NCBI GenBank assembly: GCA_021783235.1
Contig: JAJXUD010000009.1
Span: 1,911 to 65,910 of the forward strand
Length of the DNA stretch: 64,000 nt
DNA from: Myxococcales bacterium
GTDB lineage: Bacteria > Myxococcota > Myxococcia > Myxococcales > JAKAPL01
Direction: 5' to 3'
Positions 4,090 through 26,839 of this stretch are shown here, piece after piece (position 1 is the stretch's first letter; each line of letters opens with the position of its first letter). The notes under the pieces were generated by a model. It worked only from the letters and a program-made list of their open reading frames with translations. It searched no databases and was not told the DNA's origin. Position numbers and translations under genes: made by a program.

Positions 4090-4166
<77 letters not shown>

Positions 4167-4287: not shown

Positions 4288-4384
4288 CAAGAGAGTAGCC
4301 TCGTGGGGCCGCCGAGACGGCCCGAAGATGCGAGGCGCAGGTCGAACGCTGCAGCAGATGGGGCCGTCCCGGCGGCCGACATAT

Positions 4385-4457: not shown

Positions 4458-4563
4458 CCCAGAGGCTTTTCGAGGTCGATGCGGGCCGGCGCGGTCCTGG
4501 CGGCGGCTCGCGGGGCGGGAGTGCCCTGAAGGCCTCCCGCCGAGGCCTCGTCTTCGAGAAGCC

Positions 4564-6462: not shown

Positions 6463-6634
6463 TCAGAGCCTGTGAACCAATCCCTGGACCGAGCCCAGCG
6501 GCCGAGGCGGGTCCAGCTGCGAGGCGCGCCAACGGCTTGATACCCGCTGAGGTATCAAGCCGTTGGCACAACGAAGTAGATGGGCCCGGATCGGTCGCTG
6601 GGCGACGGGAAGGGATTGGTTCACAGGCTCTCAG
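6463..6634. repeat. MITE/REP-like palindromic intergenic element, copy 2 (inverted relative to copy 1)
   Basis: Reverse complement of 75-245 with only a few mismatches. Its right terminal repeat contains the stop codon (6631-6633) of the upstream methyltransferase gene. Confidence 0.8.
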
Positions 6635-8445
6635 CCGCGCTTGCGGGCGACGACGCGGTAGGCGTCGGACATGCCGGGGAGCCCCTTCGCGAGCCGGAGG
6701 GCGGCGTCGACGGCGAACGCGGCGGCGAGGGGGGCTGCGCCGAGGGCGAGCGTCGCGGTCCGACGCGCCCGCGAGAGCGCGCCGCCGGGCGCGCGCCAGG
6801 GGAGATCCGCGGGGGGGGCCCAGCCGTCGAGGGTCAGCCAGGTGGCGAAGAAGACGTTCGAGCCGACGTGCGCGGGGCCGCGCTCGACGCGAGTCACCTC
6901 GAAGCCGAGCTCGTCCAGGACCCGGGAGAGGTTTCGCACCGAGAGCAGCTGCTGGTGCTGCGGCTGGAAGTAGGGCATCCAGCGCGTCCCGAGGACGTGG
7001 CGCATGCTGCACTCGGGGTCTGGGACCTCGATGACGAGCTGTCCATTTGGGCCGAGCACGCGGTGGGCCGCGGCCAGGTCCGTGCGCGGGTCGCGGGTGT
7101 GCTCGAGGCAGTGGCTCAGGCTCACGACGTCGTAGCGCCCCTCGAGCGAGGGGGCGAGGTCTGGGAGGAAGCCCTGGAACGCCTCGTCGATCCAGCCGCG
7201 CCGCAGCCCCTCGCGCACGCTCTCCCCGACGTCCAGGCAGTCGAAGCGCGTCTCGGGCCAGCGCTCGCGGGCGAGCAGGCAGAAGTGGCCGGTGCCGCCC
7301 CCGACGTCGAGCCAGCGGCGCGGCTCCCCCGTCGCGAGATCGGCGCGGGCCCGGTAGCTCTCCGCGGCGAAGCCGAAGACCGCCTCGAGCCAGGCCTCGG
7401 AGAGGCCGTCGTAGAAGTCGCGGTAGTAGAACGAGAGTCCTTCGAGGGAGAGGCGCGGGTTCTGGAAGAGGTGGCCGCAGTCGCGGCAGCCCTCGAGCAC
7501 GAAGGTCCCCGGCTTGTGCTGGAGCCGGTCGGGAGTCCGGAGGACGGGGGCGAGCCGCTCGCCGTCGCAGACGGGGCAGCGCGTCCGGCGCGGCTCGAAG
7601 AAGCGCGCCGTCCCACCCGCCAGCTCGGCCTCGTAGGCCGGCCGCCGCGCCGCCACCGCGGCGGCCCGCTCGTCGTCCGGGGCGTTCGCGAAGAGCGCGG
7701 TGGCCCAGTCCCAGATCTGGAGCGGCAGCATCAGCAGGCTGGTGGGCCAGAGATCGTCCGCCTCGATTGGGCTGCCAGAGAGCGCGACGAGCGGCTGGAG
7801 GTGGAGCGCGAAGAGACCGAGCGCGCCCGCGAGGCCGCCGCGCAGCGCCGCGAGGAGGGTGAGCGCCCAGAGCACGGCCTGGCCCGCGGCGATGGTCGGC
7901 GTGAAGTCGGAGAGGACCTCGCGCAAAACGGCGCTCCGCTCGAGGGCGCTCGGCCGGTGGGGGATGAGCCCGTCTGCCACCGCGAAGCCGACGCCGGTCG
8001 GCGCGTAACGTTTGAAGCGGCGGGCGAGCCGCAAGAGCTCGGCGGGCGTCCGCGGCGAGAAATCCGAGACCGCCGCCCGCTCGAGGAGCGCGCGCGAGAC
8101 CAGGATCGCCTGCCCGGCGCTCGCGCCGGGCGCGAGCTGGCTGCGGCGGAAGCTCCTCGGGTCGACCTGCTGCACGAGGCCGAGGGCGGGGAGCGCCTTC
8201 CAGCGGGCGGGAACGAGGTCGAGCGCGAGGAGCTGCTCGCCCCGCGCGAAGGACTCGGCGGCGGCCCGCGCCTCGGGCGGAAGCGTCGCGCCGCGGCCGA
8301 GGATGAGCTCGTAGGCGACCTCCGGCGCGCCGACCGCGCCGCTCTCGCTCGCCCGTGGCAAGGCGCGCAGCCGCCCGCGCAGCCGGAGCGCGTCCCCGAG
8401 GTAGATGAGCGCGAGGAGAAGCCCGAGGGCCGCCCAGATCGTCAC
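6631..8445 (-). CDS. membrane-anchored class I SAM-dependent methyltransferase with zinc-ribbon (last gene of the PKS operon)
   Basis: The GTG start overlaps the GT1 stop (GTGA). The N-terminal ~270 aa carry hydrophobic segments. These are followed by CPVCDG...CRDCGH and the SAM motif LDVGGGTGHF ... YDVVSLSHCLEHTRDP. The upstream part of ORF 6631..9141 is Arg-rich and overlaps the GT gene. Confidence 0.75.
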   Translation of the reverse strand: MTIWAALGLLLALIYLGDALRLRGRLRALPRASESGAVGAPEVAYELILGRGATLPPEARAAAESFARGEQLLALDLVPARWKALPALGLVQQVDPRSFRRSQLAPGASAGQAILVSRALLERAAVSDFSPRTPAELLRLARRFKRYAPTGVGFAVADGLIPHRPSALERSAVLREVLSDFTPTIAAGQAVLWALTLLAALRGGLAGALGLFALHLQPLVALSGSPIEADDLWPTSLLMLPLQIWDWATALFANAPDDERAAAVAARRPAYEAELAGGTARFFEPRRTRCPVCDGERLAPVLRTPDRLQHKPGTFVLEGCRDCGHLFQNPRLSLEGLSFYYRDFYDGLSEAWLEAVFGFAAESYRARADLATGEPRRWLDVGGGTGHFCLLARERWPETRFDCLDVGESVREGLRRGWIDEAFQGFLPDLAPSLEGRYDVVSLSHCLEHTRDPRTDLAAAHRVLGPNGQLVIEVPDPECSMRHVLGTRWMPYFQPQHQQLLSVRNLSRVLDELGFEVTRVERGPAHVGSNVFFATWLTLDGWAPPADLPWRAPGGALSRARRTATLALGAAPLAAAFAVDAALRLAKGLPGMSDAYRVVARKRG

Positions 8446-9596
8446 AGAAGTGCCTCCAGCGCCCGGACGGCCGCCGGGGTTCCGCCGGCCGCCTCGAACG
8501 AGCTCCGAATCCGATCCGCGGCCGCCCGAAAGGACGGCTCGCCCAGCACGCGGCGGACCGCGTCGCGCAGCTCCACGGGGCTCGTGCGGCCGAAGCGGAG
8601 CCGCAGCCCGGCTCCCGCGCTCGCGATCTGCTGGGCGATCACCGGCTGATCGTCGCGGATGGGCGCGACGAGGAGCGGCAGCCCGTGGGCGAGCGACTCG
8701 CAGACGGTGTTCTGGCCGCCGTGGCAGAGGACCGCCGAGACGCGGGGCAAGAGCGCGAGCTGCGGCACGCGCGGCACGACGAGGAAGTTGTCCGGGGCGG
8801 GGCCGAAGGCCTCGGGCGGCGCGGCCACGACGACCTGCAGGGGCTCCTCGGCGAGCGCCTCGACGAGCGCGCGGTAGAGCGGGCCGCCGTGGCCGGCGTT
8901 CACCGTCCCGAGCGAGACGAAGAGCAGCCGCCCCTCGCGCAGCCGCTCCCAGGGGAACGGTGGCTCCGTCGCGCGGGGCGAGAAGCAGGGGCCGATCCAG
9001 CGGAGCTGCGGCGGGTAGGGGCCGGGGCCCGCGAGCTCTGGAGTCGAGAAGACGAGCACGAGCTCGGGCGAGAGCTCGGCCTCGGGCCGCGGCGCGAGGC
9101 CCGCCTCGCGCTCGAGCTCTGCCTTGCGGGCCACCATCCACTCGCGGACCTTGGGCAGGTCGGCGAGCGAGTCGACGACGCCCGCGGCGGTGGTGGCGAG
9201 CGTCGCCCAGCGGATCCCGAGCCGGCGGGCCGCGAGCGCCCCGGCGAGCGCCTGCTGGTCGACGAGGAGCAGATCGGGCCGCAGCTCGCGCGCCGCGGCC
9301 TCGACGCCGGGCAGCATGGAGCGGCCGAGCGGGAGGAAGAGCTCCTCCCAGAGCTCCTTGAAGGCGAGGAGGCCACGCGCCGGCGAGAGGCCTCCGAGCG
9401 ACCGGTCGCGCCGCGCCATGACCTCGCGCTCGTCGAGGGGGAAGAGGCGCGCCCCCTCGGGGAGCAGCGGCCTCACCGCGCCCGGGTGGCCCACCCAGGC
9501 GACCTCGTGGCCGCGCGCCCGGAGCGCCGCGCCGAGCGAGGCGCTCGGATTGACGTGGCCCGTCAGCGGCGGGACCACGAAGAGCAGCCGCGCCAC
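8442..9596 (-). CDS. GT1-family glycosyltransferase (MGT/UDP-glycosyltransferase type)
   Basis: N-terminal LLFVVPPLTGHVNP and C-terminal donor-binding region HGGQNTVCESLAHGLPLLVAPIRDDQP. The GTG start overlaps the upstream stop by 1 nt. Confidence 0.85.
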   Translation of the reverse strand: MARLLFVVPPLTGHVNPSASLGAALRARGHEVAWVGHPGAVRPLLPEGARLFPLDEREVMARRDRSLGGLSPARGLLAFKELWEELFLPLGRSMLPGVEAAARELRPDLLLVDQQALAGALAARRLGIRWATLATTAAGVVDSLADLPKVREWMVARKAELEREAGLAPRPEAELSPELVLVFSTPELAGPGPYPPQLRWIGPCFSPRATEPPFPWERLREGRLLFVSLGTVNAGHGGPLYRALVEALAEEPLQVVVAAPPEAFGPAPDNFLVVPRVPQLALLPRVSAVLCHGGQNTVCESLAHGLPLLVAPIRDDQPVIAQQIASAGAGLRLRFGRTSPVELRDAVRRVLGEPSFRAAADRIRSSFEAAGGTPAAVRALEALL

Positions 9597-10372
9597 TAGG
9601 CTCGCTCCCGGAGCCAGCGGAGCAGCTCGTCGCGCACGTAGTCCGTCTCCTCCCAGAGGAGCGAGTGGGTGCTCCCCGGCCGGACGAGGAGCCGCGCCTG
9701 GGCGAGGCGCTGGGGCAGATCCTCGGCCTGCGGCCGAAGGTCGGAGCGCTCGCCGTAGAGCGCCAGCGTGGGGCAGGCGATCCGCCGGAAGCTCTCGTCC
9801 GAGAGCGGCGGGCTCGCGGCGAGATCCGCGAGCAGGGAGGTGCCCTCGACGAGGGCGCGGGCGTTGTCGGCGAGCCGGCTGCGCTTGCGCTCGCTGTGGC
9901 GGCCGAGCCAGTGCTGGAAGCTCTCGGCGATGCGCCGGTCGCGCGCCTCTCCCTGGAGCGCGAGCGTCTGGACCATGGCGTCTCCCCAGCCGGCTGCGCC
10001 GAGGTGCGCGTCGATGAGGAAGAGGGAGGCGACGCGCTCGGGTCGGATGGAGGCGTAGGCGAGGGCGAGCAGCCCGCCGAAGCTGTTGCCGACGAGGTGG
10101 ACGGGCGCGCGGACGTCGAGCGTGGCGAGCAGCGCGTCGAGATCCCGGGTGAAGTCGGCGAGCGCGTAGCCGCTGGTCGGCCGCTCGCTGCGGCCGTGGC
10201 CGCGCAGATCGTAGAGGAGCGCCTCGGCCACCCGCGAGACCGGGCTCGCGAGCGTGAAGTAGAAGCTCGAGAGGTTGTCCATCACGAGGCCGTGGAGAAA
10301 GACCACCGTGGGTGGGCCGGCGCCGATTCGCTGGACGTGCAGCCGGACGCCGTTGACGACCGCGTCAGCCAC
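9596..10372 (-). CDS. alpha/beta hydrolase
   Basis: HG oxyanion motif VVFLHGL and nucleophile elbow VGNSFGG. Overlaps the upstream gene by 8 nt. Confidence 0.8.
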   Translation of the reverse strand: MADAVVNGVRLHVQRIGAGPPTVVFLHGLVMDNLSSFYFTLASPVSRVAEALLYDLRGHGRSERPTSGYALADFTRDLDALLATLDVRAPVHLVGNSFGGLLALAYASIRPERVASLFLIDAHLGAAGWGDAMVQTLALQGEARDRRIAESFQHWLGRHSERKRSRLADNARALVEGTSLLADLAASPPLSDESFRRIACPTLALYGERSDLRPQAEDLPQRLAQARLLVRPGSTHSLLWEETDYVRDELLRWLRERA

Positions 10373-11120
10373 GGAGCCACCCTTCGAGCGAGGCCGTGAG
10401 GGCGGCGGTCGAGTCGAGGTGGAGGTTGTGGCCGCCCGGCAGCACGACGAGCCTCGCCCCCGGCATCACGCGGGCGAGCCGCTCGCCGACCTCGCGGCAG
10501 GACGACTGCTCGCCGTAGACGAGCAGCGGGTCCCTCACCCGGGCGAGCTCCGCGTCGGGGGGATCGGGCTCGCGCCGGACGTCCTCGAGGAGCGAGGTCT
10601 CGAACGACAGCTCGGCGAGCGTGTGGAGGAGCTTGTCGGCCTGCCGGCCGCGCCGGTCGAGGAACTGCCGCGTGACCTGGGGCAGGGCCTCGGCCATCTT
10701 CGAGCGGTCGAGGGCGAAGAACGCCTGGAGATCCGGCAGCCGCGAGGGGGGCAGCGGCGCCTCGACGAGCGCGAGCTTCTCGACGCGCTCGGGCCACTCG
10801 AGCGCCAGCCGCAGCGCCACCAGCGCGCCGTAGCTGTGGCCGACGAGCGCGATCGGGCCGCCGAAGCCCATCGCGTCGAGGACCCCGACCACGTCCCGGG
10901 CCATCGTGCGGGAATCGTAGCCCTCGCGCGGCCGGTCGCTGCGGCCGTGGCCGCGCAGGTCGACGAGCAGCACGCGGTGGCCGCGCGCCAGCGTCGGCGC
11001 GCTCGTGAAGTACCAGGAGGCGCTGCTGCCGACGAGGAGCCCGTGCAGCATGACCACGGGCCGGCCGTCCCCGAGCTCGACGGCGTTGAGCCGGAGCCCG
11101 TTCGTCTCGATCAGGGGCAC
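10365..11120 (-). CDS. alpha/beta hydrolase
   Basis: VVMLHGLL and nucleophile elbow VGHSYGA. GTG 11120 was chosen as start (VPLIETNGLRLN...); it overlaps the ACP stop region by 10 nt. Confidence 0.75.
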   Translation of the reverse strand: MPLIETNGLRLNAVELGDGRPVVMLHGLLVGSSASWYFTSAPTLARGHRVLLVDLRGHGRSDRPREGYDSRTMARDVVGVLDAMGFGGPIALVGHSYGALVALRLALEWPERVEKLALVEAPLPPSRLPDLQAFFALDRSKMAEALPQVTRQFLDRRGRQADKLLHTLAELSFETSLLEDVRREPDPPDAELARVRDPLLVYGEQSSCREVGERLARVMPGARLVVLPGGHNLHLDSTAALTASLEGWLRG

Positions 11121-11392
11121 TGGGCGATCAGCTCCACGAGATTCCCCACCCGAAGCGCCAGGATCTCGTCCAGCTCCTTGCCCGAGAGCCAGCCGACGAA
11201 GTCGACCCCTCCGCCGTAGCGGCTCTGGAGCTTCTCGCCGAGCGCGACGAACTCGATGCTCTCGAGCTCGAGGTCCTCGCTGAACGAGGTGTCGAGGCCG
11301 ATCTCGGCCTCCTCGATCCAGGCCTCTCCCACCACCTCGCGGATGAGGCGGGCGACCTCCTTCAATATCTCTTCGCGCGCGGCCGCCGTCAC
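11111..11392 (-). CDS. stand-alone acyl carrier protein
   Basis: 93 aa with the phosphopantetheine-attachment-like motif EDLELESIEFVAL. The GTG start overlaps the PKS stop (GTGA). Confidence 0.75.
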   Translation of the reverse strand: MTAAAREEILKEVARLIREVVGEAWIEEAEIGLDTSFSEDLELESIEFVALGEKLQSRYGGGVDFVGWLSGKELDEILALRVGNLVELIAQCP

Positions 11393-14300
11393 GGCTCGAG
11401 CCTCCAGGCGACGACGAACGGCCCGTCGCGATCCGTCTGCGCCCATTCACCATCGATCCGGAACCGTTGTCCATCTACCTCTTGCACGGGGAGGCGGCGC
11501 GGGTCGCCGCCGAGGCCCGTGCCGCGGGCCTTCGCGACCGCCTCCTTGGCGCAGAAGGCGCGGGTGAGCCACTCGTCGCCCGGGGGGAGCAGGCGACGCT
11601 CCTCGGGGGCGCAGACCAGCTCGGCGAAGCCCTCGGCGCGCGGCTCGACGCGATCGAGGTCCACCCCCACGTCGGCGCCGAGCGCGGCGAGGGCGATGGC
11701 CGCCCCCTCGACGTGCGCGAGCGAGACCCGCACGTCGAAGGAGAAGGGGCCGCGCACGGTGGGCCGGCCCCGCTCGTCGTTCTCGACCTCGATCTGGACC
11801 GGGTGGAGCGGGCCCGCTCCCCGCTTCCAGAGGAGCTCTCGGACGGCGTCCTTGACCGCGATGCGGCCGTTCAGCCACTGCCCCTGCCGGCGGGGGTGGA
11901 TCCCGTCGAGCTCCGCCCGCTCGCGGGCGCCGAGGAAGCGGCGGGCGATGAGCTCGCGGGAGGGGGCGTTCGTCCAGGAGTCGGCGACGAAGAGGTAGCC
12001 TTGCGGCCGCGGAACGGCGAGGAGGTTCCGCTCGGGGAAGCGCAGGACCTCCCAGAGCCGCGCGTCGCTGTCGAAGCGCCGGTCCTCCCACGCCTCGATG
12101 CGGCAGAACGGGCGGCCGTCCGCGTGGGAGAGCCAGAGGTCCGCGGTGACGGCTTGCGGCCCGAGCTCCCGGATTCGGACCGCGCAGCGGAGCCGCTCAC
12201 CCGGGCGTGGCTCGGGCCCGTGAAAGGAGACGCGGCCGAGGCGAAAGGGGAGCGCGAGCCGGTCGACCTCGGTTCGGAGCATCACCCAGAGGCCGAAGAG
12301 CTGGCCGGCGTTGTCGAGGAGCGCCCCGGGCGCCGCGAGCGCCTCGAGCTCGCCGTCGATGCCACCGGGACCGTAGGCCGAGACCGAGCGGACGCCGCGG
12401 AAGCTCGGGCCGTGGAACATCCAGCGGTCTTCGTAGAGCGTCTCGATCCGGACGGGGAGCGGCTCCTCGCGGCCGAGCGGCGGCGGCGGCTCGAAGGGGG
12501 CGGGCGGGCCCGCGCGCGCGACGGCCTGGGCGTAGCCGTCGAGGGCGACCTCGGCGCGGTCGGGGCCGAGGCGCCGCGCCCGGAGGTTCGCCTCGACGGG
12601 CGGCGCCACCGCGATCCAGCGGAGGGCGAGGACGTCCTCGAGGGTCGAGATGGGACCCATGACCCGCTCGGCCGCCTCCCGCAGCCAGGCGAGGGAGGTG
12701 GTCATCGGCACCACGGGGAAGCGGTCGGAGATCTCCGGCCAGCCGTCGGGCTGCCGGTAGAAGCAGTGGTCGAGGAGGTACGGCTGCGCCTCGACCGAGA
12801 GCCGCCGCCGCTCGGACCAGCTCTCGGGAGGGGCCGGCGCGGGGGAGGGGCTGCCGGCGGCGAAGGCCGCGACCACCTCCGACTGGAGCTCGGAGAGGCG
12901 GCGCAGCGACTGGGCGAGCTCGGCGAGGATCGGCGAGTTCGTCTCGCCCGGCGCGGCCTCTGGGACGACCGGGGTGGAGAGCGGCAGCATCGGCGGCAGC
13001 CGGACGAGCGGTACGCCGAGATCGAGCAGCCGCTCGGCGCTGGCCGGGCCGACGCGCGAGAGGTCGACCTCGCGCCCCGCGACGAAGGCGGCGGCGAGGA
13101 CGCGCCGGAGCTGCGCGAGCCCCGGGCGCCGCATCGCGCCGGCGCTGACGGCGACGTGCTCCGCGCCCCTCAGCGTGTCCTGGGCGAAGGCCGTGAGCGT
13201 TCCCCCCGCGCCGACCTCGACGAACGTCCGGAAGCCGGCGTCGTGCATCCGCGCGACGAGCTCGCGGAAGCGGACGGGCTCGACCAGGTGGCGGGCGGCG
13301 AGCTCGCGGACCTCCGCGGGGGAATCGGGGTAGGGGGCGCAGGTCGTCGCCGACCAGAGCGGCAGTCGGGGGCGCTGGAGCGGCAGGGCCGCGAGCCGCG
13401 CGCGGTGGGGCCCGAGGTGGGGCGAGAAGAGCGGGGAGTGGAAGCCCGAGCGAAACGGCAGCTCCTGCGCGAGGATCTGGGCCGCGCGGAGCCTCTGCAG
13501 CGCCGTCGAGATGCGGTCGGCCCGGCCGCAGAGGACGACCTGGTGGGGGCAGTTGTCGTGGGAGAGCGCGATGTCCGAGAGGCCCGCGATGGCCTCCAGG
13601 GCCCTCTCGGCCCCGCAGCCGGCGGCGGCGAAGAGCACGTCGGGGACCTCGAGCGTCCCGGGCGTGAGCGAGCGGATGAACGGCTCGGCCTCGGCGGGCG
13701 GGATGAGCTCGGAGGCGACCATCCCGGTCCACTCGCCGATGCTGTGGCCGGCCAGGGCGTCGGGCGCGAGGCCGGCACGGCCGAGCGCGTCGAAGAGGAG
13801 ACGGCTCGTCGCGACGACCGCGAGCCCGGTCGCCTCGATCCCGTCGGGCCGTTCGTCGGGCGGCTCGCGCGAGAGCCAGGCGGCGACGTCGCGCACGCGC
13901 GGCTCGAAGGTGGGCTCGAGCCCGGGAAAGAGGAAGGCGACCTTTCCGCCGCTCGGCCTCGGCGAAAACCAGACGTCGTCGTGGCCGAGCCAGGGCCGCT
14001 CGCCGAGGACGATCTTGCGCGCGAGCGCCCGCCGCTCGGGCGTCGGGTCGAAGAGGACGAGCCGCAGCGGCCCGCGCGCGCTCGTGGCGCCGCCGCCTTC
14101 GAGCGCGGCGAGGAGGGACGCCGCGTCGGGGGCGGCGAGGGCGAGCCAGCGCTCCCTCGAGGGCGCCGCGGGGGCGTCGGCGGCGTGGCGGCTCGGTCGG
14201 CGCCGCGGGGCCGGCTCGTCGCCCGACTCCTCGAGCACGACGTGGGCGTTGATGCCGCCGAAGCCGAAGGCGTCGACGGCGGCGCGACGCGGCCCCGCCC

Positions 14301-15606
14301 CGAGCTCGGGCCACGGCTCGGCCCTCGCGGGGACGCGAAAGCGCGTCTCCTCGAGTCTCGGGTGCGGCTCCTCGCAGTGGAGGCTCGGCGGCACGACGCG
14401 GTGCTCGAGCGCGAGGACGGCCTTGAGGAGCCCCGCGGCCCCCGCGGCCGGCATGGCGTGGCCGATCATCGACTTGACCGAGCCCGTCAGCGCGCGCGGC
14501 CCGTCGCCGGCCGGGCCGAAGAAGCGGGCGAGCGTCGTGAGCTCGGCCTCGTCGCCCTGCACGGTCCCGGTGCCGTGGGCCTCGAGCAGCCCGAGCCGCT
14601 CGGGCGCGACGCCGGCCTCCTCCCAGGCGCGGCGCAGGGCGAGGAGCTGCCCCTCGACGGCGGGGTTCACGAGGGCGGCGCCGCGGCCGTCGCTCGAGAG
14701 GCCGACGCCGAGGAGCCGCGCGTGGACCCGGTGGCCGAGCCGGCGCGCGTCGGAGAGCCGCTCGAGGACCACGATGCCGGCCCCCTCGCCGATGAGGAGG
14801 CCGTCGGCCCGCCGATCGAACGGGCGAATCTGGCCGTCTCGACTCAGGGCGCCGAGCGAGCTGAAGACGCTCCAGAAGGTGACGTCGTGGCAGAGGTGGA
14901 CGCCGCCCGCGAGCGCCACGTCGCAGCGGCCGCTCCGCAGCTCGCGGGCCGCCTGGTCCAGGGCGACGAGCGAGCTCGCGCAGGCCGCGTCGACGGTGTA
15001 GGCCGGCCCCCGCAGGTCGAGCCGGTTCGCGATGCGCGAGGCGGCGAGGTTCGGCACGAGGCCGATGGCGCTGTCCGGGCCGTGGGCGCCGAGCCGGGCC
15101 TGGAACGCCTCCTTGAGCGCCCGAAGGGACTCCTCGGGCACGCCGGGGAGCTGGGAGCGCAGGATCGCGACGAGCTGCTCGGCGGTCCGAACCCGCTCGG
15201 CGAGGCGCGCGATGCCGGCCGTCAGGTAGCCGCCGCGGCCGAGGACGACGGCGGTCCGCTCGCGCCAGGCGCCCTCCGCGAGCCCCGCGTCGGCGAGCGC
15301 CGCCTGGGCGACGGCGAGCGCGAGGAGCTGGTCGGGCTCGGCCCCCTCGGCGGCGCGCGGCGGGATGCCGAACTCGAGCGGATCGAAGCTGGCCTGCCCG
15401 TCGACGAAGCCGCCGCGCCGGCAGTAGAAGCGGTCGGCCGAGGCCGCGGCCGGATCGAAGAAGACCGGATCCCAGCGCCCCGGCGGGACGTCGCTCGTCG
15501 CGTCGACCCCCTGCTCGAGGTTTCGCCAGAAGGTCGCGACGTCGGGCGCGCCGGGGAAGACGCAGCCCAGCCCGACGATGGCGACGGGCTCAGGAGGCGA
15601 CGGCAT
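11389..15606 (-). CDS. type I PKS-like protein: KS-AT-DH with fused C-terminal 4'-phosphopantetheinyl transferase
   Basis: KS motifs: VAIVGLGCVFPGAPD, DAACASSLVAL, EAHGTGT, SVKSMIGHAMPAAG. AT motifs: GHSIGEW, FRSGFHSPLF. PKS-type dehydratase motif: LLDHCFY...FPVVPM. The last ~190 aa resemble Sfp/AcpS-type PPTases (GVDLDRVEP, FCAKEAVAKARG). Confidence 0.85.
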   Translation of the reverse strand: MPSPPEPVAIVGLGCVFPGAPDVATFWRNLEQGVDATSDVPPGRWDPVFFDPAAASADRFYCRRGGFVDGQASFDPLEFGIPPRAAEGAEPDQLLALAVAQAALADAGLAEGAWRERTAVVLGRGGYLTAGIARLAERVRTAEQLVAILRSQLPGVPEESLRALKEAFQARLGAHGPDSAIGLVPNLAASRIANRLDLRGPAYTVDAACASSLVALDQAARELRSGRCDVALAGGVHLCHDVTFWSVFSSLGALSRDGQIRPFDRRADGLLIGEGAGIVVLERLSDARRLGHRVHARLLGVGLSSDGRGAALVNPAVEGQLLALRRAWEEAGVAPERLGLLEAHGTGTVQGDEAELTTLARFFGPAGDGPRALTGSVKSMIGHAMPAAGAAGLLKAVLALEHRVVPPSLHCEEPHPRLEETRFRVPARAEPWPELGAGPRRAAVDAFGFGGINAHVVLEESGDEPAPRRRPSRHAADAPAAPSRERWLALAAPDAASLLAALEGGGATSARGPLRLVLFDPTPERRALARKIVLGERPWLGHDDVWFSPRPSGGKVAFLFPGLEPTFEPRVRDVAAWLSREPPDERPDGIEATGLAVVATSRLLFDALGRAGLAPDALAGHSIGEWTGMVASELIPPAEAEPFIRSLTPGTLEVPDVLFAAAGCGAERALEAIAGLSDIALSHDNCPHQVVLCGRADRISTALQRLRAAQILAQELPFRSGFHSPLFSPHLGPHRARLAALPLQRPRLPLWSATTCAPYPDSPAEVRELAARHLVEPVRFRELVARMHDAGFRTFVEVGAGGTLTAFAQDTLRGAEHVAVSAGAMRRPGLAQLRRVLAAAFVAGREVDLSRVGPASAERLLDLGVPLVRLPPMLPLSTPVVPEAAPGETNSPILAELAQSLRRLSELQSEVVAAFAAGSPSPAPAPPESWSERRRLSVEAQPYLLDHCFYRQPDGWPEISDRFPVVPMTTSLAWLREAAERVMGPISTLEDVLALRWIAVAPPVEANLRARRLGPDRAEVALDGYAQAVARAGPPAPFEPPPPLGREEPLPVRIETLYEDRWMFHGPSFRGVRSVSAYGPGGIDGELEALAAPGALLDNAGQLFGLWVMLRTEVDRLALPFRLGRVSFHGPEPRPGERLRCAVRIRELGPQAVTADLWLSHADGRPFCRIEAWEDRRFDSDARLWEVLRFPERNLLAVPRPQGYLFVADSWTNAPSRELIARRFLGARERAELDGIHPRRQGQWLNGRIAVKDAVRELLWKRGAGPLHPVQIEVENDERGRPTVRGPFSFDVRVSLAHVEGAAIALAALGADVGVDLDRVEPRAEGFAELVCAPEERRLLPPGDEWLTRAFCAKEAVAKARGTGLGGDPRRLPVQEVDGQRFRIDGEWAQTDRDGPFVVAWRLEP

Positions 15607-18600
15607 GCAGCGGGGGCGCGGGCGTCGAGGCCGGATCGGCCGGCGGGGGGCGGGGGCGATCGGCGAAGAGGGAGGGGGGCGCGGCGGCGAGGAAGAGCTG
15701 GAGGGCGCCGCCCCGCGGCGGCGCGCCGTCGGCGGGGGCGTCGAAGAGGGCGGCGAGGACGGCGTCCATCCCGGCCGCGAGCGGGAGGAGCGGGAGGCCG
15801 CGCCGCTCGTACTCGCGCGCGAGCTCGGGCGTCACCATTCCAGCGCCCGCCCACGGCCCGAAGTCGAGCGCCACCGCGGGTCCCGCGATCCGGCCGTCGA
15901 GCGTTCGGACGAGCCGATCGAGCGCGTCGTTTCCCGCGGCGTAGTCCACCTGGCCGCGGTTGCCGAAGAGGCCCGAGACGCTGCCGAAGGCGACGAAGAG
16001 CCGCGTCTCCGGGCGCAACTGGCGCGCGAGCGCCATGGCGCCGTGGAGCTTCGTCTCGACCACCCGCTCGAAGGCCGCCCGCTCCTTGCCCTCGAAGGCC
16101 CGGTCGTCGGTGACGCCGGCGGCGTGGACGACGGCCTCGACGGGCCCCTCGCGGCCGAGCCGCTCGAAGAGGGCCGCGACGCCCTCGCCCGAGCGGACGT
16201 CGAGCGCGTGGTAGCGGGCGCGGCCGCCGGCGGCGCGGATCTCGGCGAGCGTCCGGCGAACCTCGCGGGCGGCGAAGGCGGCCTGGGCCGCGGCCTCGAC
16301 CTCCGCGAGCCGGCCGCCGCGCCGGACGAGCGCCTGGCGAATCCCCGCGAGGTCCGCGGCGCCGGCGAGCTCGGCGGGCTCGTCGTCCGGCACGGCGCGG
16401 GAGCCGACGAGCTCGAGCGCGCAGCCGAAGCGGCGCGCGATCCCCACCGCGAGCCGGGCGGTGATGCCTCGGGCTCCCCCGGTGACGACGACGACCGAGC
16501 TCTTGGAGAGCGCGACCCCGAGCCGCGGCGGCTCACCCTCCCGCAGCTCGACCCTCCGGCGCGCGCCGGCCTTCCAGCGGCTCTCCGGGGGACCGGCGGG
16601 GTCGGTGAGCTCGAGGGCGAGCTCTTCGGCGAGCCGCTCCGGGGGCTCCGCGGGATCGAGATCCACCGCGCGCGCCGAGAGCTCCGGCCGCTCGCGGCCG
16701 AGGCTCTGGAGGAGCCCCGCGAGCCCCGCGCCGTCGAGCGGGCCCCCGCCGGCGCCACCGAGCCCCCCGAGCGCCGAGGCGGCGAGCAGCTGCTTCGCTC
16801 CCGCGGCGACCGCCTCGCGGCAGCGGGCGAACGCCTCCCAGAGGGCGGAGCCGCTCCAGGCGCCGGCGGCGAGCGAGGTCAGGTCGACGAGCCGCTCGAT
16901 CGGGCCTTCGGGGCGGGCGAGCGAGAGCCGAACCTCGGCGCCCCGCTCGGAGAGGAGCGCCGCGAGCCGCGCGGCGACGGGCGAGCCCTCGGGGGCGGCG
17001 ATCCAGCTCCGGCCCGAGGTCCGGCGGAGGGAGAGCTCGGGGGCCGCCTCGAGTTCGGCAGTCGCCCAGTGGAGCAGGGCCGCGGACGGCGTCTTCGGCG
17101 GCAGCGCGCCCGCCGTCGCCGGCGCCGCGGCCTCGCCGGACGGGCCCGCGGCGAGCCGCTGCTCGATCCAGCTCGAGATGCCCCGCAGCGTCTTGACCGA
17201 GGAGAGCTTCTCGAGCGATCCGTCCGACCCGCCCGAGGCCCCCTTGCCGATCCCGAGCCGCTGCGTCAGGGCGCCGAGGATCTCGATCCGCTTGATCGAG
17301 TCGATGCTGAGCTCGGCCTCGAGGTCGGCGTCGAGACTGAGCATCTCCGGGGGATAGCCCGTCCGCTCGCTGACGAGCCGCAGCAGCAGCTGGGCCACGT
17401 CGACCGAGGCGGCGCCGAGCGCCTCGGCGCTCTCCGGGGCCGGCCCCTCTCGGACCGCCTCCGACTTCGCCGTCGGCCGCGCCTCGATCCGCTCGAGCGT
17501 CCGGACGGGCGCGGCCTCGCCGGCCGGGGCGCCGAGGTAGCGGAGCATCACCTCGCGCTGCGCCTCGGCGAGCTCTCGCATCCCCTGGAGGTAGGCCATC
17601 ACCGAGCCCTCGCGCTCCGAGGAGGGCGCCGCCGGGGAGAGGATCGCGATCGGCGCCGCGTTGGGCTTGAGCGAGTGGCGCGGCAGCTCGCCCGTCGCCG
17701 GTCGCGCGAGCTGGCCGTCGACGAGCCAGAGGGCGGCGGGCTTTCCGGGCGGGGCCGCGTCGAGGTCGAGCCTTCGGACCTGGCGGCCCGCGAAGAGCGG
17801 CGCGAGCTGCACCGGGACGCCGTGGACCGCGAGCTCGGCGAGCAGCTCGAGGAGCTGCGGGAGGCCGCCGCCGCCGTCGCGCGAGAGCGGCAACGCGAGG
17901 TGGGGCCGCTCGCCGAGCGTCCGCCCGACGAGGCGGGTCAGCACCTGGCCGGGCCCGACCTCGACGAAGGTCCGGGCGCCCGCGGCGTACATCGCCTCGA
18001 CCTGCGCGGCGAAGCGGACCGGTGAGACGAGCTGCTTCGCGAGCAGCGCCCGGACGTCGCCCGCCGATGGGGCGTACGGCGCCGCCGTCACGTTGGAGTA
18101 GACGGGCAGCGCCGGGGCGCGCAGCTCGACCCCCGCGAGGGCGCGGGCGAACGCCGCGTCGGCGCCGGCGAGGAGCGGGCTGTGGAAGGCGCAGGCGACC
18201 GGGAGCCGCTGCGCCGAGAGCCCCTCGCGGGAGAAGCGCTCGAGCGCGGCCTCGAGCGCCGCCCGGGGGCCGGCGACGACTCCCTGGGACGGCGAGTTCT
18301 CGTTCGCGAGGACGAGCCCCGTCCCCTCGCAGAGGGCGCGGAGCCGGTCGAGCGGGGCGGCCACGGCCGCCATGGCGCCGGGCTCGTCCCCGACGGCGTC
18401 CAGGATGCAGCGCGCCCGCTCGGCGCTCAGCAGGATGAGCTCCCGCTGGGAGAGCGCGCCGGCCGCGCAGAGGGCGACGAGCTCGCCGTAGCTGTGGCCG
18501 CCCGCGAGGTCGGGGCGGACCCCGAGCGCCGAGAGGAGTTCGAGGGCGGCGAGCTCCACCATCCCGAGCGCCGGCTGGGCGATCCGGGTGTCGGTGAGAG

Positions 18601-21600
18601 CGGCGGCCTGCGCGGCGCGCTCGTCGTCGCCAAAGCCCGGGGCCGGCAACGCCACGCCGGCGACTCGGCGATCGAGCTCGAGGATCCGCTGGAGCTGGGG
18701 GAAGGCGACGAAGAGCTCGCCGAGCATCCCGGTCCGCTGGCTGCCCTGGCCGGGGAACAGGAAGGCGACGGGCCCCTGCGGCGCGCGGGCGGCGAACACT
18801 CCGTCGCCCGCCTGGTCGGCCCGCGCCCGCGCGAGCTTGCGGCCGAGGTCGCCCAGATCCTGGGCGACGATCGCGAGCTGGACCGGGCCGCGCCCCTGCC
18901 CGTTCACGGTGAAGGCGAGGTCGGCGAGCGTGCCCGGGAGCGGTCGCTCGAGCCGCTTCTCGAGCTCCCCGGCGCGGGCGGCGGCCTCGGCGCGCGTTCC
19001 GGCCCGCAAGAGGAAGAGCTCCGCGGGAAAGCGCGGGCCGCCCGTCGCGGGCGGCTCGGCGCGCGGGTACTCCGCGAGCACCGCGTGGAAGTTGGTGCCG
19101 CCGAAGCCGAAGGCGCTCACCGCGGCCTTGCGCGTCCCCCCGGCGGCCGGCGGCAGCCAGGGGCGCGCCACGGTGGAGAGCACGAAGGGGCTCTGGGCCC
19201 GGTCCCAGCCGGGGTTCGGCCGCCGGACGTTGATGGTGGGCGGCAGGACGTGGTGGTGGAGCGCGAGCGCCGCCTTGACGATGCCGGCGAGGCCGGCGGC
19301 GCACTTCGTGTGGCCGATCTGCGACTTCACCGAGCCGAGCGCGGTCTCGCCCACTGGCGCGCCGGCGCGGCCGTAGACCTCGGTCAGCGTCGCGAGCTCG
19401 GTCCGATCGCCCACCACCGTGCCGGTGCCGTGGGCCTCGACGAGCCCCACCTCCGCCGGCGAGACGCCCGCCTGCCGGTAGGCCCGCTCGAGCGCCCGGA
19501 CCTGCCCCTCCTTGCGGGGCGCGGTCAGCCCGAGGCTCCGGCCGTCGCTCGATCCGCCGACCCCGCGCAGCACGGCGTAGATCCGGTCGCCGTCCCGCTC
19601 GGCGTCGGCGAGCCGCTTGAGCACGAGGCAGGCCACCCCCTCGCCGAGGACGATGCCGTCGGCCTCGGCGTCGAAGGTGCGGCAGTGGCCGCCCTTCGAC
19701 AGCGCGTGGACCGAGGAGAACATGAGGTAGTCGTTGATCCCGTTGTGGAGGTCGACGCCGCCGCAGAGCACGACGTCGCTCCCGTGGGTGACGAGCTCCT
19801 TGATGCCGAGGTCGACCGCCGCGAGCGAGCTCGCGCAGGCGGCGTCGACCGTGAAGTTGAGGCCGCCGAGGTCGAGCCGGTTCGCGATGCGGCCCGCGAC
19901 CACGTTCGAGAGGACGCCCGGGAACGAGTCCTCGGTGAGCGAGGGGAGGTGCTCGGCGAGCTTCTCGGGCAGCGGGCCGAGGAGCTGCGGGTAGAGGTTG
20001 CGGAAGCCGTAGGCGTTCGAGAGGTCGTTGCCCCCCTCGGCGCCGAAGATCACCGAGGTGCGCTCGCGGTCGAATTCGCGCTCGTGGTAGCCGGCGTCCT
20101 GGAGGGCGCGCCGCGCCGCCTCGAGCGCGAGGAGCTGCGCCGGATCGATGGCCGGCAGCGAGCTCGGCGGGATCCCGTACGAGATCGGGTCGAAGGGGAT
20201 CTCGGGGAGGAAGCCGCCCCACTTGCAGGGCGTCTTGTCGCCGCCCGTCGAGGCCGGGTCGTAGTAGAGCTCCGCGTTCCAGCGGGCGCGGGGGACCTCC
20301 CGCACCGAATCGAGGCCGCCGAGGACGTTCGCCCAGAAGGTCTTCAGGTCGGGGGCGTCGGGGAAGATCGCGGACATCCCCACGATGGCGACGTCCGCCG
20401 GACGCGAATCGCCCGGGCTCGGCGGCGGCGGCGCCGGCAGGGCGCGCAGGAGCCGGTCGCTCCCCTCGCTCACCTCGCGGTGCAGCTCCTCGATCGAGAC
20501 GACGGCGGACCGCAGGGCGGCCAGCTGGCCGATCATGAACATCCCCTCGCGCCGCTGCGTCTGCGGGTCCAGGGCGACGAGCTTCGAATCCTCGCGCCGG
20601 ACCCCCTTCGCGGCGATGCGGAGCCGGCCGAGGTTCAGCCGCTCGAGCTCCTCCCAGACCTCGCCGGGCGCCTTCCCCGCCGCCTCGAGCTCGGCCCGCC
20701 GGGCCCGGAAGGCCTCGACGTAGTCGCTCTCGACGCAGCGGGTGGCGTGGCCCGGGGCGGTCTCGAGCAGGACGGTCCGCTCGCAGCGGAGCGCCGCCTC
20801 CTGGAAGGCGCGGCCGATCGCCCCGGTCGCGACCGCCTCCTCGGTGAAGAGGTAGGCGGTGCCGAGGAGGACCCCGAGGCGGGCGCCGCGCGCCGCGAGC
20901 GGCGCGGCGAGCGCGGCCACCATCGCCGCCGAGCGGGCGTCGTGGATGCCGCCCGCGAAGAAGACCGAGAGCTCCTCGGGGGCGGGGTGCGAGAGCAGCC
21001 GCTCCACCGCCTGCTCCCAGAGCAGGAGGCTCGATCGCGGCCCGACGTGGCCGCCGCACTCGCGCCCCTCGAAGACGAAGCGGCGCGCCCCGTCGGCGAG
21101 GAAGAGGTCGAGCAGGGCGGGCGAGGGGACGTGGAGGTAGGTCTCGATCCCGAGCTCCTCGAGCGAGCGCGCCTGGTCGGGGCGGCCGCCGGCGATGAGC
21201 GCCACCTTCGGCCGGAGCTCCTCGACGACGCGAAGCTGCTCGGCCCGCAGCTCGGGCGGCACGAAGCCGAGGATGCCGACGCCGAAGGGCCGTCCGCCGA
21301 GCTGCGCCCGCGTCTCCTCGAGGAGCCGGCGGACCTCCTCGCCCCGCGAGAGGGAGAGCGCGAGGAACGGGAGGCCGCCCGCCTGCGCGACGGCGAGCGC
21401 GAAGGCGGCGCGGTCGCTGACCCGGGTCATCGGCCCCTGCGCGATGGGGAAGCGGAGGCCGTGGGCCCGCGCCAGGGGCGAGTCGGGCGAGAGCGGCGAG
21501 AGGTCCCGGGCCTGGCGCAGCTGCTGGTCGCTCGCGCGGGCGAGGCCGCGCACCACCCCCCCGGCGGTCCGGTAGCGGCGCGCCATCGAAGCGGCGAGCG

Positions 21601-22375
21601 CGCCCTCCTGGCCGACGGGGAGGAGCTGGCTCTGGAGGTCCCGCCCCCCCAGCCGGGCGAGCAGCTCGGCGCGGCTCGACTGGCCGGGCTTCGGGAGGAC
21701 GAGGTCGGGGCGGGTGAAGACGCGCTGCCCCTCGAGGAGCGTCGTCTCGCTGCCGTCCATCGAGGCGAGCGCCGCCTTGACGGCCTCGGGGGCCGCCGAC
21801 TCGCGCACGAGCGCGAGCTGCGCGTCGAGGAGGACGCCCCGGGCCCCGGCCGCGCGGGCCGCGGCGAGGCCGTTCCTCCCGACGCCCCCCTGGAGCCAGA
21901 TCGGCAGCCCCAGCTCCGCCTGCAAGAGGAGCTGGAGCAGGATGAAGCCGGTCTCCTCGCCGACGCGGCCGCCGCTCTCGGAGCCCTTCGCGACGAGCCC
22001 CGCGGCCCCCGCCGCCCGGGCCTCGCGCGCCTCCGCGACCGTGACCACCTGGGCCAACACCGGCCTTCCGGCGGCGCGGGCCACGAGCGGGGCGACCTGT
22101 CCGGGCGTCGCGGCGAGGAAGGCCCCCACGCTCGCCGGCAGGTCGAGCGTCTCGAGGGAGACGCCCTCCGGGACCCGGACGCCGAACTCGCCGGGGGCCT
22201 GGGCGGCCAAGGCGGCGAGGGCGCTGCGGGCGAGCCGGGCGTCGCGGCCGAGGTCGAGGATCCCGAGGGCGCCCGCGCGGCAGAGCGCCACGCAGAGGGC
22301 GGGGTCCGGCTCCTCGAACGGGGTCAGGCCGAGGAGGCTGCGGGAGAGGAGGCTCGGATCGGGGTGCGCGGGCAT
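15590..22375 (-). CDS. type I PKS/PUFA-synthase-like megasynthase: tandem NMO/PfaD-type enoyl reductase regions - KS - AT - ACP - KR
   Basis: ER-like: aa ~1-290 and ~305-640 are TIM-barrel nitronate-monooxygenase/PfaD-like (FPIAQGPMTRVSD, FEGRECGGHVGP). KS from aa ~660: VAIVGMSAIFPDAPD, DAACASSLAAV, EAHGTGT, GHTKCAAG. AT: FLFPGQGSQ, GHSYGE, CAFHSPLL. ACP: LSIDSIKRIEILG. KR: VVVVTGGARGIT. Confidence 0.85.
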   Translation of the reverse strand: MPAHPDPSLLSRSLLGLTPFEEPDPALCVALCRAGALGILDLGRDARLARSALAALAAQAPGEFGVRVPEGVSLETLDLPASVGAFLAATPGQVAPLVARAAGRPVLAQVVTVAEAREARAAGAAGLVAKGSESGGRVGEETGFILLQLLLQAELGLPIWLQGGVGRNGLAAARAAGARGVLLDAQLALVRESAAPEAVKAALASMDGSETTLLEGQRVFTRPDLVLPKPGQSSRAELLARLGGRDLQSQLLPVGQEGALAASMARRYRTAGGVVRGLARASDQQLRQARDLSPLSPDSPLARAHGLRFPIAQGPMTRVSDRAAFALAVAQAGGLPFLALSLSRGEEVRRLLEETRAQLGGRPFGVGILGFVPPELRAEQLRVVEELRPKVALIAGGRPDQARSLEELGIETYLHVPSPALLDLFLADGARRFVFEGRECGGHVGPRSSLLLWEQAVERLLSHPAPEELSVFFAGGIHDARSAAMVAALAAPLAARGARLGVLLGTAYLFTEEAVATGAIGRAFQEAALRCERTVLLETAPGHATRCVESDYVEAFRARRAELEAAGKAPGEVWEELERLNLGRLRIAAKGVRREDSKLVALDPQTQRREGMFMIGQLAALRSAVVSIEELHREVSEGSDRLLRALPAPPPPSPGDSRPADVAIVGMSAIFPDAPDLKTFWANVLGGLDSVREVPRARWNAELYYDPASTGGDKTPCKWGGFLPEIPFDPISYGIPPSSLPAIDPAQLLALEAARRALQDAGYHEREFDRERTSVIFGAEGGNDLSNAYGFRNLYPQLLGPLPEKLAEHLPSLTEDSFPGVLSNVVAGRIANRLDLGGLNFTVDAACASSLAAVDLGIKELVTHGSDVVLCGGVDLHNGINDYLMFSSVHALSKGGHCRTFDAEADGIVLGEGVACLVLKRLADAERDGDRIYAVLRGVGGSSDGRSLGLTAPRKEGQVRALERAYRQAGVSPAEVGLVEAHGTGTVVGDRTELATLTEVYGRAGAPVGETALGSVKSQIGHTKCAAGLAGIVKAALALHHHVLPPTINVRRPNPGWDRAQSPFVLSTVARPWLPPAAGGTRKAAVSAFGFGGTNFHAVLAEYPRAEPPATGGPRFPAELFLLRAGTRAEAAARAGELEKRLERPLPGTLADLAFTVNGQGRGPVQLAIVAQDLGDLGRKLARARADQAGDGVFAARAPQGPVAFLFPGQGSQRTGMLGELFVAFPQLQRILELDRRVAGVALPAPGFGDDERAAQAAALTDTRIAQPALGMVELAALELLSALGVRPDLAGGHSYGELVALCAAGALSQRELILLSAERARCILDAVGDEPGAMAAVAAPLDRLRALCEGTGLVLANENSPSQGVVAGPRAALEAALERFSREGLSAQRLPVACAFHSPLLAGADAAFARALAGVELRAPALPVYSNVTAAPYAPSAGDVRALLAKQLVSPVRFAAQVEAMYAAGARTFVEVGPGQVLTRLVGRTLGERPHLALPLSRDGGGGLPQLLELLAELAVHGVPVQLAPLFAGRQVRRLDLDAAPPGKPAALWLVDGQLARPATGELPRHSLKPNAAPIAILSPAAPSSEREGSVMAYLQGMRELAEAQREVMLRYLGAPAGEAAPVRTLERIEARPTAKSEAVREGPAPESAEALGAASVDVAQLLLRLVSERTGYPPEMLSLDADLEAELSIDSIKRIEILGALTQRLGIGKGASGGSDGSLEKLSSVKTLRGISSWIEQRLAAGPSGEAAAPATAGALPPKTPSAALLHWATAELEAAPELSLRRTSGRSWIAAPEGSPVAARLAALLSERGAEVRLSLARPEGPIERLVDLTSLAAGAWSGSALWEAFARCREAVAAGAKQLLAASALGGLGGAGGGPLDGAGLAGLLQSLGRERPELSARAVDLDPAEPPERLAEELALELTDPAGPPESRWKAGARRRVELREGEPPRLGVALSKSSVVVVTGGARGITARLAVGIARRFGCALELVGSRAVPDDEPAELAGAADLAGIRQALVRRGGRLAEVEAAAQAAFAAREVRRTLAEIRAAGGRARYHALDVRSGEGVAALFERLGREGPVEAVVHAAGVTDDRAFEGKERAAFERVVETKLHGAMALARQLRPETRLFVAFGSVSGLFGNRGQVDYAAGNDALDRLVRTLDGRIAGPAVALDFGPWAGAGMVTPELAREYERRGLPLLPLAAGMDAVLAALFDAPADGAPPRGGALQLFLAAAPPSLFADRPRPPPADPASTPAPPLHAVAS

Positions 22376-22562
22376 GGCGGGGCGGGCATGGCTGGCGGTC
22401 GCTCAGTCTAGCACGGCTCGGGCGCGGCGCTCGCCCGGACGGATCAAGAGGTGGGACAACCCCGCACCTTTACGAGCGAAATCCGCTCTTCTAGGATGCG
22501 CGCGCGCGATCCGTCCGAAAACTTTCGGCGGGCGCGCGCGTCATCCATCCGTGAGGAGCTCC

Positions 22563-26836: not shown

Positions 26837-26839
26837 GCG

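Follow-up and report, generated by a model that had tools for sequence, protein, structure and literature searches.

The 64,000-nucleotide stretch analysed here (the window), taken from contig JAJXUD010000009.1 of the Myxococcales bacterium assembly GCA_021783235.1, carries on its minus strand a seven-gene operon (positions 6631–22375) whose product, we consider it probable, is a methylated very-long-chain glycolipid. In this reading the operon encodes a two-subunit, iterative, self-priming and fully reducing type I fatty acid synthase/polyketide synthase (FAS/PKS) together with a conserved set of tailoring enzymes. The evidence is the domain content of the proteins, their intact catalytic motifs and the co-conservation of six or seven of the genes in other genomes, from which we infer every step of the mechanism proposed below. 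The operon is one more member of a family rather than a unique system, and its main value lies in a family-wide pattern that gives a testable product prediction.

In the order of transcription, the genes encode a PfaA/ArsA-like synthase subunit of 2261 amino acids (g1, 15590–22375), a second synthase subunit of 1405 amino acids (g2, 11389–15606), a free-standing acyl carrier protein (ACP) of 93 amino acids (g3, 11111–11392), two α/β hydrolases of 251 and 258 amino acids (g4, 10365–11120, and g5, 9596–10372), a GT1 glycosyltransferase of the macrolide glycosyltransferase/UDP-glucosyltransferase family with 384 amino acids (g6, 8442–9596), and a membrane methyltransferase of 604 amino acids that is the signature gene of the cassette (g7, 6631–8445). 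The seven genes were established from the open reading frame (ORF) listing and by direct reading of the sequence. Each overlaps the next: g1 and g2 by 17 nt (15590–15606), g2 and g3 at a GTGA (11389–11392), g3 and g4 by 10 nt (11111–11120), g4 and g5 by 8 nt (10365–10372), g5 and g6 by 1 nt (9596), and g6 and g7 at another GTGA (8442–8445). Independent gene calls on three public metagenome contigs with an identical locus give the same seven products at equal lengths. The claim of a single translationally coupled operon, made in the original prediction, a first reading of the letters alone, therefore holds at all six junctions and for all seven genes. Terminator-like sites inside the operon are not above chance (4 against 2.5 ± 1.8 expected), and Rfam detects no riboswitch or other RNA in the operon or adjoining it. 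The promoter is presumed to lie in the 186-bp intergenic region (22376–22561, no strand) that separates the operon from a divergent efflux operon of the resistance-nodulation-division (RND) type; a scan of the operon promoter, which covers the sigma-70 consensus only, did not find that consensus.

The domain order that Pfam assigns to g1 is NMO (in two stretches), ketosynthase (KS), acyltransferase (AT), PP-binding and ketoreductase (KR). The best-scoring NCBIfam model for the protein is PfaA (TIGR02813), at 903 bits, which is under the cutoff of 1010. A complete enoyl reductase (ER) of the FabK/PfaD type, dependent on flavin mononucleotide and bearing ECGGHVG, occupies residues 300–590 (20606–21478, minus strand, as are all g1 features) and is followed by a KS-AT didomain at residues 661–1518 (17822–20395; Pfam and motifs), the sole integrated ACP at residues 1663–1709 (17249–17389; Pfam and LSIDSIK) and the KR at residues 1961–2176 (15848–16495; Pfam). 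The catalytic motifs of the subunit are DAACASS, HGTGT, KSQIGH, GHSYG, CAFHS and DSI, and its AT bears the malonyl-type xAFHS. Ahead of the complete ER, residues 48–210 (21746–22234) form a partial FabK/NMO-like copy that aligns only to the middle of the FabK/NMO profile and has ESGGR at the position of the catalytic histidine. That histidine is replaced in five of five aligned sequences, the four homologues having arginine three times and proline once (ESGGP). On this combination of a mid-profile match and a histidine lost throughout the alignment, the partial copy is probably a non-catalytic, structural relic.

The second subunit, g2, comprises KS, AT, a dehydratase (DH; PS-DH in Pfam) of the PKS type and an integrated Sfp-type phosphopantetheinyl transferase (PPTase; ACPS in Pfam). 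Its KS and AT carry DAACASS, HGTGT, KSMIGH and GHSIG, the DH has its histidine (LLDHCF) and a DxxxQ (LDNAGQ), and the PPTase has RGRP at residue 1279, VSLAH at residue 1294, and FCAKEA. Both KS domains of the operon retain the Cys-His-His triad and both ATs retain GHSxG, in agreement with the earlier claim that both KS are Cys-active and that each large protein has one AT. Pfam and motif searches of the operon proteins detected no FabA-type DH, chain-length factor (CLF), acylglycerolphosphate acyltransferase (AGPAT) or tandem ACPs, absences that the original prediction had also noted. Its domain assignments are upheld by Pfam apart from the tandem 'ER-ER' at the start of g1, of which one complete ER stands and the first copy is a degenerate half-domain without the catalytic histidine.

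The smaller genes g3 to g6 encode a carrier, two hydrolases and a glycosyltransferase. The ACP g3 is recognised by Pfam (PP-binding, E = 2.6e-5), carries LELESIEF, and has a counterpart in nearly all related loci. The hydrolases g4 and g5 (Pfam Abhydrolase_1/6) are 37% identical to each other, and each has a GxSxG nucleophile motif (GHSYG and GNSFG, respectively); the CurM thioesterase (TE) is among the nearest PDB matches of g4. The latter is an extra paralogue, absent from Streptomyces and Pseudonocardiales loci, where the single actinobacterial hydrolase is closer to g5 than to g4. The glycosyltransferase g6 (Pfam UDPGT/EryCIII-like) scores 156 bits against the NCBIfam model MGT, under the cutoff of 260; its nearest PDB sequences are YjiC, Kcn28 and OleD/OleI, and its nearest solved relatives are UDP-glucosyltransferases for lipophilic aglycones.

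The methyltransferase g7 (Pfam Methyltransf_23) consists of an N-terminal transmembrane helix, a small α/β domain, a transmembrane hairpin, a Cys4 zinc ribbon, a class I S-adenosylmethionine (SAM) methyltransferase domain and a C-terminal transmembrane helix, with hydrophobic segments at residues 1–22, 183–223 and 564–583. The four cysteines C290, C293, C320 and C323 are invariant across 40 homologues, and the AlphaFold (AF2) model has a predicted local distance difference test (pLDDT) score of 93. In Foldseek comparisons the zinc-ribbon and methyltransferase part is matched best by the NDP-sugar C3-methyltransferases MtmC, KijD1 and TcaB9 (E about 4e-9 to 3e-8), at 17–19% sequence identity and template-modelling scores (TM-scores) of 0.30–0.45; small-molecule methyltransferases such as the sugar O-methyltransferase RebM are also in the match list (E about 1e-8 or better, TM-score 0.26–0.32). 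Like g7, these three C3-methyltransferases carry a Cys4 zinc ribbon on the N-terminal side of a class I SAM methyltransferase fold; unlike them, g7 has some 280 extra N-terminal residues, containing the transmembrane helices and the small α/β domain, and the C-terminal transmembrane helix. Modelled separately, the first 285 residues give a pLDDT of 94 and only non-significant Foldseek matches (best E = 0.065, TM-score at most 0.33), nearly all of them to glycosyltransferases of the GT-A fold. We take this as a hint from modelling, and not as a finding, that the N-terminal domain may be GT-A-like.

The synthase core has a published counterpart. Table S1 of Shulse and Allen (2011; PMC3098273) lists a core of ER-KS-MAT-ACP(1–3)-KR (MAT, malonyl acyltransferase), KS-AT-PPTase and ACP as the secondary lipid synthase Types M, N and O, with uncharacterised products. 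Type M comprises Frankia spp., Renibacterium, Actinosynnema and Streptomyces avermitilis SAV_7360–7362 (NP_828536–38, the 'pks1' cluster), Type N Chryseobacterium and Chitinophaga, and Type O Dinoroseobacter, Parvularcula and Gloeobacter (PMC3098273). The operon has the same three-gene core in the same order, with an ER fused N-terminally in g1, a KS-AT-PPTase protein in g2 and a free ACP in g3; g1 has a single ACP, as does Parvularcula (Type O), where most listed members of the three types have two. According to the same study, the PPTases of Types M–T, including the Type P ars system, lack motif P0, and have P1a x(G/D)xP and P1b' hShxH, a combination that it does not report for Types A–L, of the polyunsaturated fatty acid (PUFA) kind (PMC3098273). 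The g2 PPTase matches the Types M–T motif class, with RGRP as P1a, VSLAH as P1b', no P0 and no (F/S)NxSH. As far as architecture and PPTase motifs can place it, with NCBIfam scores as a proxy for a KS tree, the operon is a new member of Types M/N/O from a myxobacterial metagenome-assembled genome (MAG). The architecture is thus already described. Two differences stand out: g2 carries a PS-DH domain (Pfam) that the 2011 table does not list for these types, and the operon continues into a tail of hydrolase(s), GT1 and methyltransferase that PMC3098273 does not mention, the word 'glycosyltransferase' occurring 0 times in its text. A literature search found no paper that mentions hydrolase, glycosyltransferase or methyltransferase genes of Types M/N/O, and a full-text search found none that assigns a product to this cluster type; PMC5107987 calls sav_7362 pks1-3, part of a 'pks1' cluster to which it assigns no known metabolite.

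The tail is a feature of the family as a whole. Homologues of g2 number in the thousands, with full-length matches at 50–72% identity in Myxococcales, Kofleriaceae, Pendulispora and Acidobacteriota, and the closest relatives of the operon genes lie in Myxococcales or 'Deltaproteobacteria' MAGs. Gene tables of six homologous loci give the order ER-KS-AT-ACP-KR, KS-AT-(DH)-PPTase, ACP, hydrolase(s), GT1 and a methyltransferase of about 600 amino acids, with unrelated neighbours. A scan with a g7 alignment over one genome per species in 185,579 species yielded at least 568 confirmed matches, the best 80 of which include Kofleriaceae, Polyangiaceae, Haliangiales, Byssovorax, Oligoflexus, Acidobacteria, Acidimicrobiales, Microthrixaceae, Iamiaceae, about 30 Streptomyces species, two Kibdelosporangium species, Embleya, Streptodolium and Allokutzneria. 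When the seven proteins were compared by tblastn with such loci, taken with 10-kb flanks so that g1 falls outside in most, the order g2-ACP-hydrolase-glycosyltransferase-methyltransferase was found in nearly all that have enough upstream sequence. The order g1-g2-ACP-hydrolase(s)-GT1-methyltransferase persists, with flanks that are unrelated, in Myxococcales MAGs, in Pendulispora brunnea, in an Acidobacteriota MAG and in Kofleriaceae and Polyangiaceae, and likewise in Acidimicrobiales, many Streptomyces, Kibdelosporangium, Embleya and Oligoflexus. Streptomyces and Pseudonocardiales have one hydrolase per locus; Myxococcota, several Acidimicrobiales, the Acidobacteriota MAG (locus L008) and Oligoflexus have two. 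Clustering of the neighbouring ORFs in the related loci revealed no further gene family conserved across phyla beyond the seven. An order kept amid unrelated flanks and the lack of any other conserved neighbour family together argue for a single functional unit of seven (or six) genes. Both the gene tables and tblastn thus find the six or seven genes together, in a shared order, in other genomes, a co-occurrence that had been left to be examined; the label 'orphan' given to the operon stands in that the literature found assigns it no product, and fails in that the whole cassette recurs in hundreds of species.

A six-gene variant with identical synthase architecture lies at 114850–129824 of plasmid NZ_CP108492 of Streptomyces sp. 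NBC_01243 (locus L090), a mobilizable, linear replicon of 869 kb, where it sits between insertion sequence (IS) elements, with transposase genes of IS3 and IS6 after it. The methyltransferase of this variant is soluble, has 355 amino acids and lacks the N-terminal membrane and GT-A-like part, a natural truncation that could reveal the role of the N-terminal domain of g7; the gene names assigned by PGAP are generic only.

Some loci depart from the common layout or add to it. In an Acidobacteria MAG (WGMB01000003, L076) the genes are rearranged, with the g7 homologue first, then a distant glycosyltransferase (30% identity) and then a g1-like synthase gene; no ACP or hydrolase matches were found in this locus. 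A gene of the leucine carboxyl methyltransferase family (PF04072) adjoins the cassette in L008 (20344–21180) and in a Myxococcales MAG (L009, 1919–2803), and in the latter an SCP2 lipid-carrier-like gene immediately follows the methyltransferase.

A mechanism compatible with these proteins can be proposed. The PPTase domain of g2 would first prime both carriers, the g1 ACP domain and the free-standing g3. The KS, AT, KR, DH and ER domains would then act iteratively on malonyl-coenzyme A (CoA) to build a very long, mostly saturated, ACP-bound chain, possibly hydroxylated at one or a few positions; the labour of the two Cys-active KS domains is probably split by chain length. That the chain would be long, saturated and held on an ACP is suggested by analogy with ArsA, which forms C22–C26 acids on its ACP. 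Such a chain would be passed to g3, or completed on it, and released or transferred by the Ser-His hydrolase g5, perhaps with g4. The GT1 enzyme g6 would place a hexose from a UDP-sugar on a hydroxyl or the carboxyl of the lipid, and g7, anchored in the membrane and bearing a zinc ribbon, would there add a methyl group to the glycolipid, with the sugar as the likeliest acceptor. The pathway would thus end in a methylated glycolipid whose alkyl chain is very long and whose place would be the membrane or the cell envelope. The earlier suggestion of a glycosylated and/or methylated long-chain lipid was, by this light, a reasonable guess at the product.

Several points weigh against this proposal. 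Chain length, degree of reduction and the acceptors of the glycosyl and methyl groups are deduced rather than observed, no product is known for any Type M/N/O member, and a 2018 PNAS paper reports that SAV_7361, a type I PKS with a PPTase, has no identified product (PMC6042109). What the second KS-AT, the free ACP and the hydrolases do is guesswork. In g2, the DH is without the strict HxxxGxxxxP motif, and the matches of g7 to sugar methyltransferases are barely better than those to generic small-molecule methyltransferases (TM-score 0.26–0.32). In Allokutzneria (L084, L089), moreover, the ACP-hydrolase-GT1-methyltransferase set occurs without g1 or g2 in the 6.5–7.8 kb upstream, a stretch that in L089 holds genes for an IclR regulator and for dihydroxyacetone kinase. 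Since these tailoring genes have no adjacent synthase, the tailoring set can be separated from the synthase and may also draw on other acyl sources.

Among the alternatives, the one that survives best, and which we still regard as unlikely, is a macrodiolide glycolipid akin to fattiviracin, cycloviracin and glucolipsin. The synthase would yield long 3-hydroxy (poly-hydroxy) fatty acids, whose hydroxyls would be glucosylated by the GT1 enzyme. An α/β hydrolase would link the acid as an ester to the 6'-OH of another such unit, closing a dimeric macrolactone, and the methyltransferase would add an O-methyl group to glucose, a modification known from cycloviracin. The genes at hand (a synthase for long chains, GT1, methyltransferase and a TE-like hydrolase, the CurM TE being among the nearest PDB matches of g4) would cover this chemistry. 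The compounds are glucosides of C17–C33 hydroxy fatty acids from Streptomyces, Nocardia and Kibdelosporangium, and the non-cyclic sugars of cycloviracin carry a methoxy group at C2 (PMC4365757); many Streptomyces and two species of Kibdelosporangium have the cassette. However, the cassette, with its at least 568 confirmed matches in several phyla, is far commoner than these rare antibiotics, it has only one glycosyltransferase, and mid-chain hydroxyls would need programmed skipping of the DH. The resemblance is one of gene content, nothing ties the genes to the compounds, and our literature search found no gene cluster reported for fattiviracin, cycloviracin or glucolipsin.

Quite improbable, in our estimate, is a masked starter unit after the manner of BioC and BioH, in which the methyltransferase would methylate the free carboxyl of malonyl-ACP (on g3), the synthase would extend this starter and a hydrolase would later take off the methyl ester, leading to a glycosylated α,ω-dicarboxylic (bolaform) lipid. 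This would account for the free ACP and for the tight association of methyltransferase, hydrolase and ACP, and g7 does match BioC weakly (E = 6e-5, 22.9 bits), as g4 and g5 match BioH (about 41 bits). The curated cutoffs, however, are 185 and 207 bits, and scores so far under them reflect the generic class I methyltransferase and α/β hydrolase folds; g7, besides, is anchored in the membrane, has a zinc ribbon, and finds its best structural neighbours among sugar and small-molecule methyltransferases.

A supply role of the ars kind, with very long ACP-bound starters handed to a distant type III PKS and turned into O-methylated, glycosylated alkylresorcinol or alkylpyrone phenolic lipids, is slightly less probable again. 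The architecture of ArsA is that of g1, direct transfer from an ACP to a type III PKS is documented for ars (PMC6274091), and O-methylation is common in phenolic lipids. No member of the chalcone/stilbene synthase family was found, however, in the operon, in the scanned part of the window, in the seven gene-table contexts or among the clustered neighbours. Least probable of all is an unsaturated chain made by a PUFA synthase or by an enediyne/polyene system, for even though the best model for g1 is PfaA and the KS-AT-ACP-KR-DH-PPTase set recalls the enediyne polyketide synthase (PKSE), there is a single ACP, no KS-CLF pair (the second KS keeps its cysteine), a PS-DH without a FabA-type DH/isomerase, an intact ER fused to g1, a PPTase with motifs of the non-PUFA group, and neither a hot-dog TE nor enediyne cassette genes. 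A methylated, very-long-chain glycolipid thus remains the product that we favour.

The genes around the operon are not conserved beside the related loci. The divergent operon across the 186-bp intergenic region (about 22562–29929, plus strand) consists of genes for a membrane-fusion protein and, one after the other, two RND pumps of the AcrB family, in an MdtABC-like layout. A functional linkage of the two operons was considered and rejected, because among the seven gene-table contexts the RND genes stand beside the cassette only on contigs with the identical locus; the counterpart flank in one Myxococcales MAG holds an ABC-2 transporter, and the other contexts hold unrelated genes. The RND operon is therefore probably not part of the pathway. 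Downstream of the synthase operon lie a gene for an ABC-F ATPase and, just past it and about 2.2 kb from the operon, three tRNA genes (Pro-TGG, Arg-TCT and His-GTG; 4090–4461, plus strand). Elsewhere the window contains a plus-strand ORF of 773 amino acids (1677–3998) with coding-like GC content at third codon positions (GC3) and no Pfam match, also called on the public contigs with the identical locus, a tRNA-Arg (TCG) gene (37466–37541, plus strand), a transfer-messenger RNA gene (57382–57746, plus strand; Rfam, 160 bits) with the tag peptide ANDNVELALAA, and a second complete RND efflux system (41073–46969, minus strand) with outer-membrane factor, AcrB-family pump and HlyD-type adaptor, in a region of about 67% GC. 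No type III PKS or other lipid gene was found in the scanned part of the rest of the window. The window is GC-rich (about 70–78%, with lower values around the second RND system); the two synthase genes (12001–22000), at 76–78% and with a GC3 of 96–97%, exceed most of the window (67–75%).

Only a handful of the secondary lipids made by PfaA-like synthases are structurally known, and Types M/N/O have been without an assigned product since 2011; the known examples that a 2026 paper gives, PUFAs aside, are the glycolipids of heterocysts and the phenolic lipids of Azotobacter (PMC13291983). What is new here is the family-wide pairing of the synthase core with an ACP-hydrolase-GT1-methyltransferase tail, in several phyla and on a plasmid. 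As the core nearly always comes with this tail, a concrete product can be predicted, namely a glycolipid that is methylated and has a very long alkyl chain. Carriers that can be grown include Pendulispora brunnea, S. kronopolitis and, in its pks1 region, S. avermitilis. Once confirmed, the prediction would add to bacterial lipid biology a widespread envelope or membrane lipid, possibly a biomarker of sediment or soil. More tentatively, and with a chance that we put somewhat below even, the compound may represent an undescribed lipid class, a methylated glycoside or glycosyl ester of a very-long-chain (hydroxy)acyl unit, common to several hundred species of soil and aquatic habitats among the Myxococcota, the Actinomycetota (with Streptomyces and Acidimicrobiia), the Acidobacteriota and Oligoflexus, and partly spread horizontally, with g7 as a new membrane-embedded fusion of a GT-A-like domain and a zinc-ribbon sugar methyltransferase. 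To identify such a lipid would settle what the Type M/N/O synthases make.

The operon differs from each of the characterised systems. The PKSE is a single KS-AT-ACP-KR-DH-PPTase polypeptide without an ER, whereas the operon is split over two proteins and has an extra KS-AT and an intact ER, and neither a hot-dog TE nor enediyne cassette genes occur among the operon and neighbour genes. The resemblance to PKSE pointed out in the original prediction is superficial in view of the ER, the two-protein split with an extra KS-AT and the lack of enediyne accessory genes. The Pfa synthases, including the myxobacterial pfa systems, share with the operon a KS-AT-ACP-KR subunit related to PfaA and an ER of the FabK/PfaD type, but the operon has no tandem ACPs (Pfa has 4–9), KS-CLF, FabA-type DH pairs or AGPAT, its ER is fused N-terminally and its PPTase is integrated. 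The cluster would probably receive the antiSMASH label 'hglE-KS'. The hgl system (Type F), like the operon, has a PfaA-like iterative synthase whose very long chain is glycosylated as an envelope lipid; according to Table S1 it combines KS-CLF-AT with a stand-alone ER and KR, an ACP-TE for reductive release and two ACPs, and the operon has none of these. A characterised relative of the operon is Azotobacter vinelandii arsABCD, in which the type I FAS ArsA/ArsD and the type III PKSs ArsB/ArsC make the alkylresorcinols and alkylpyrones of the cyst. ArsA (Type P, ER-KS-MAT-ACP-KR) makes C22–C26 fatty acids that feed ArsB and ArsC (PMC3098273), and the acids on its ACP domain can be transferred directly to these type III PKSs (PMC4824345; PMC6274091). 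For ArsD, Table S1 gives 'PPTase' and nothing more; g2, by contrast, has the layout KS-AT-DH-PPTase. ArsA has a single ACP, as g1 does, and both systems include a PPTase-bearing partner. ArsD may carry further FAS domains, which would be at odds with its listing. In the ars cluster the FAS genes enclose those for the type III PKSs, arsB and arsC, and in place of these two the operon described here has hydrolase, GT1 and methyltransferase tailoring.

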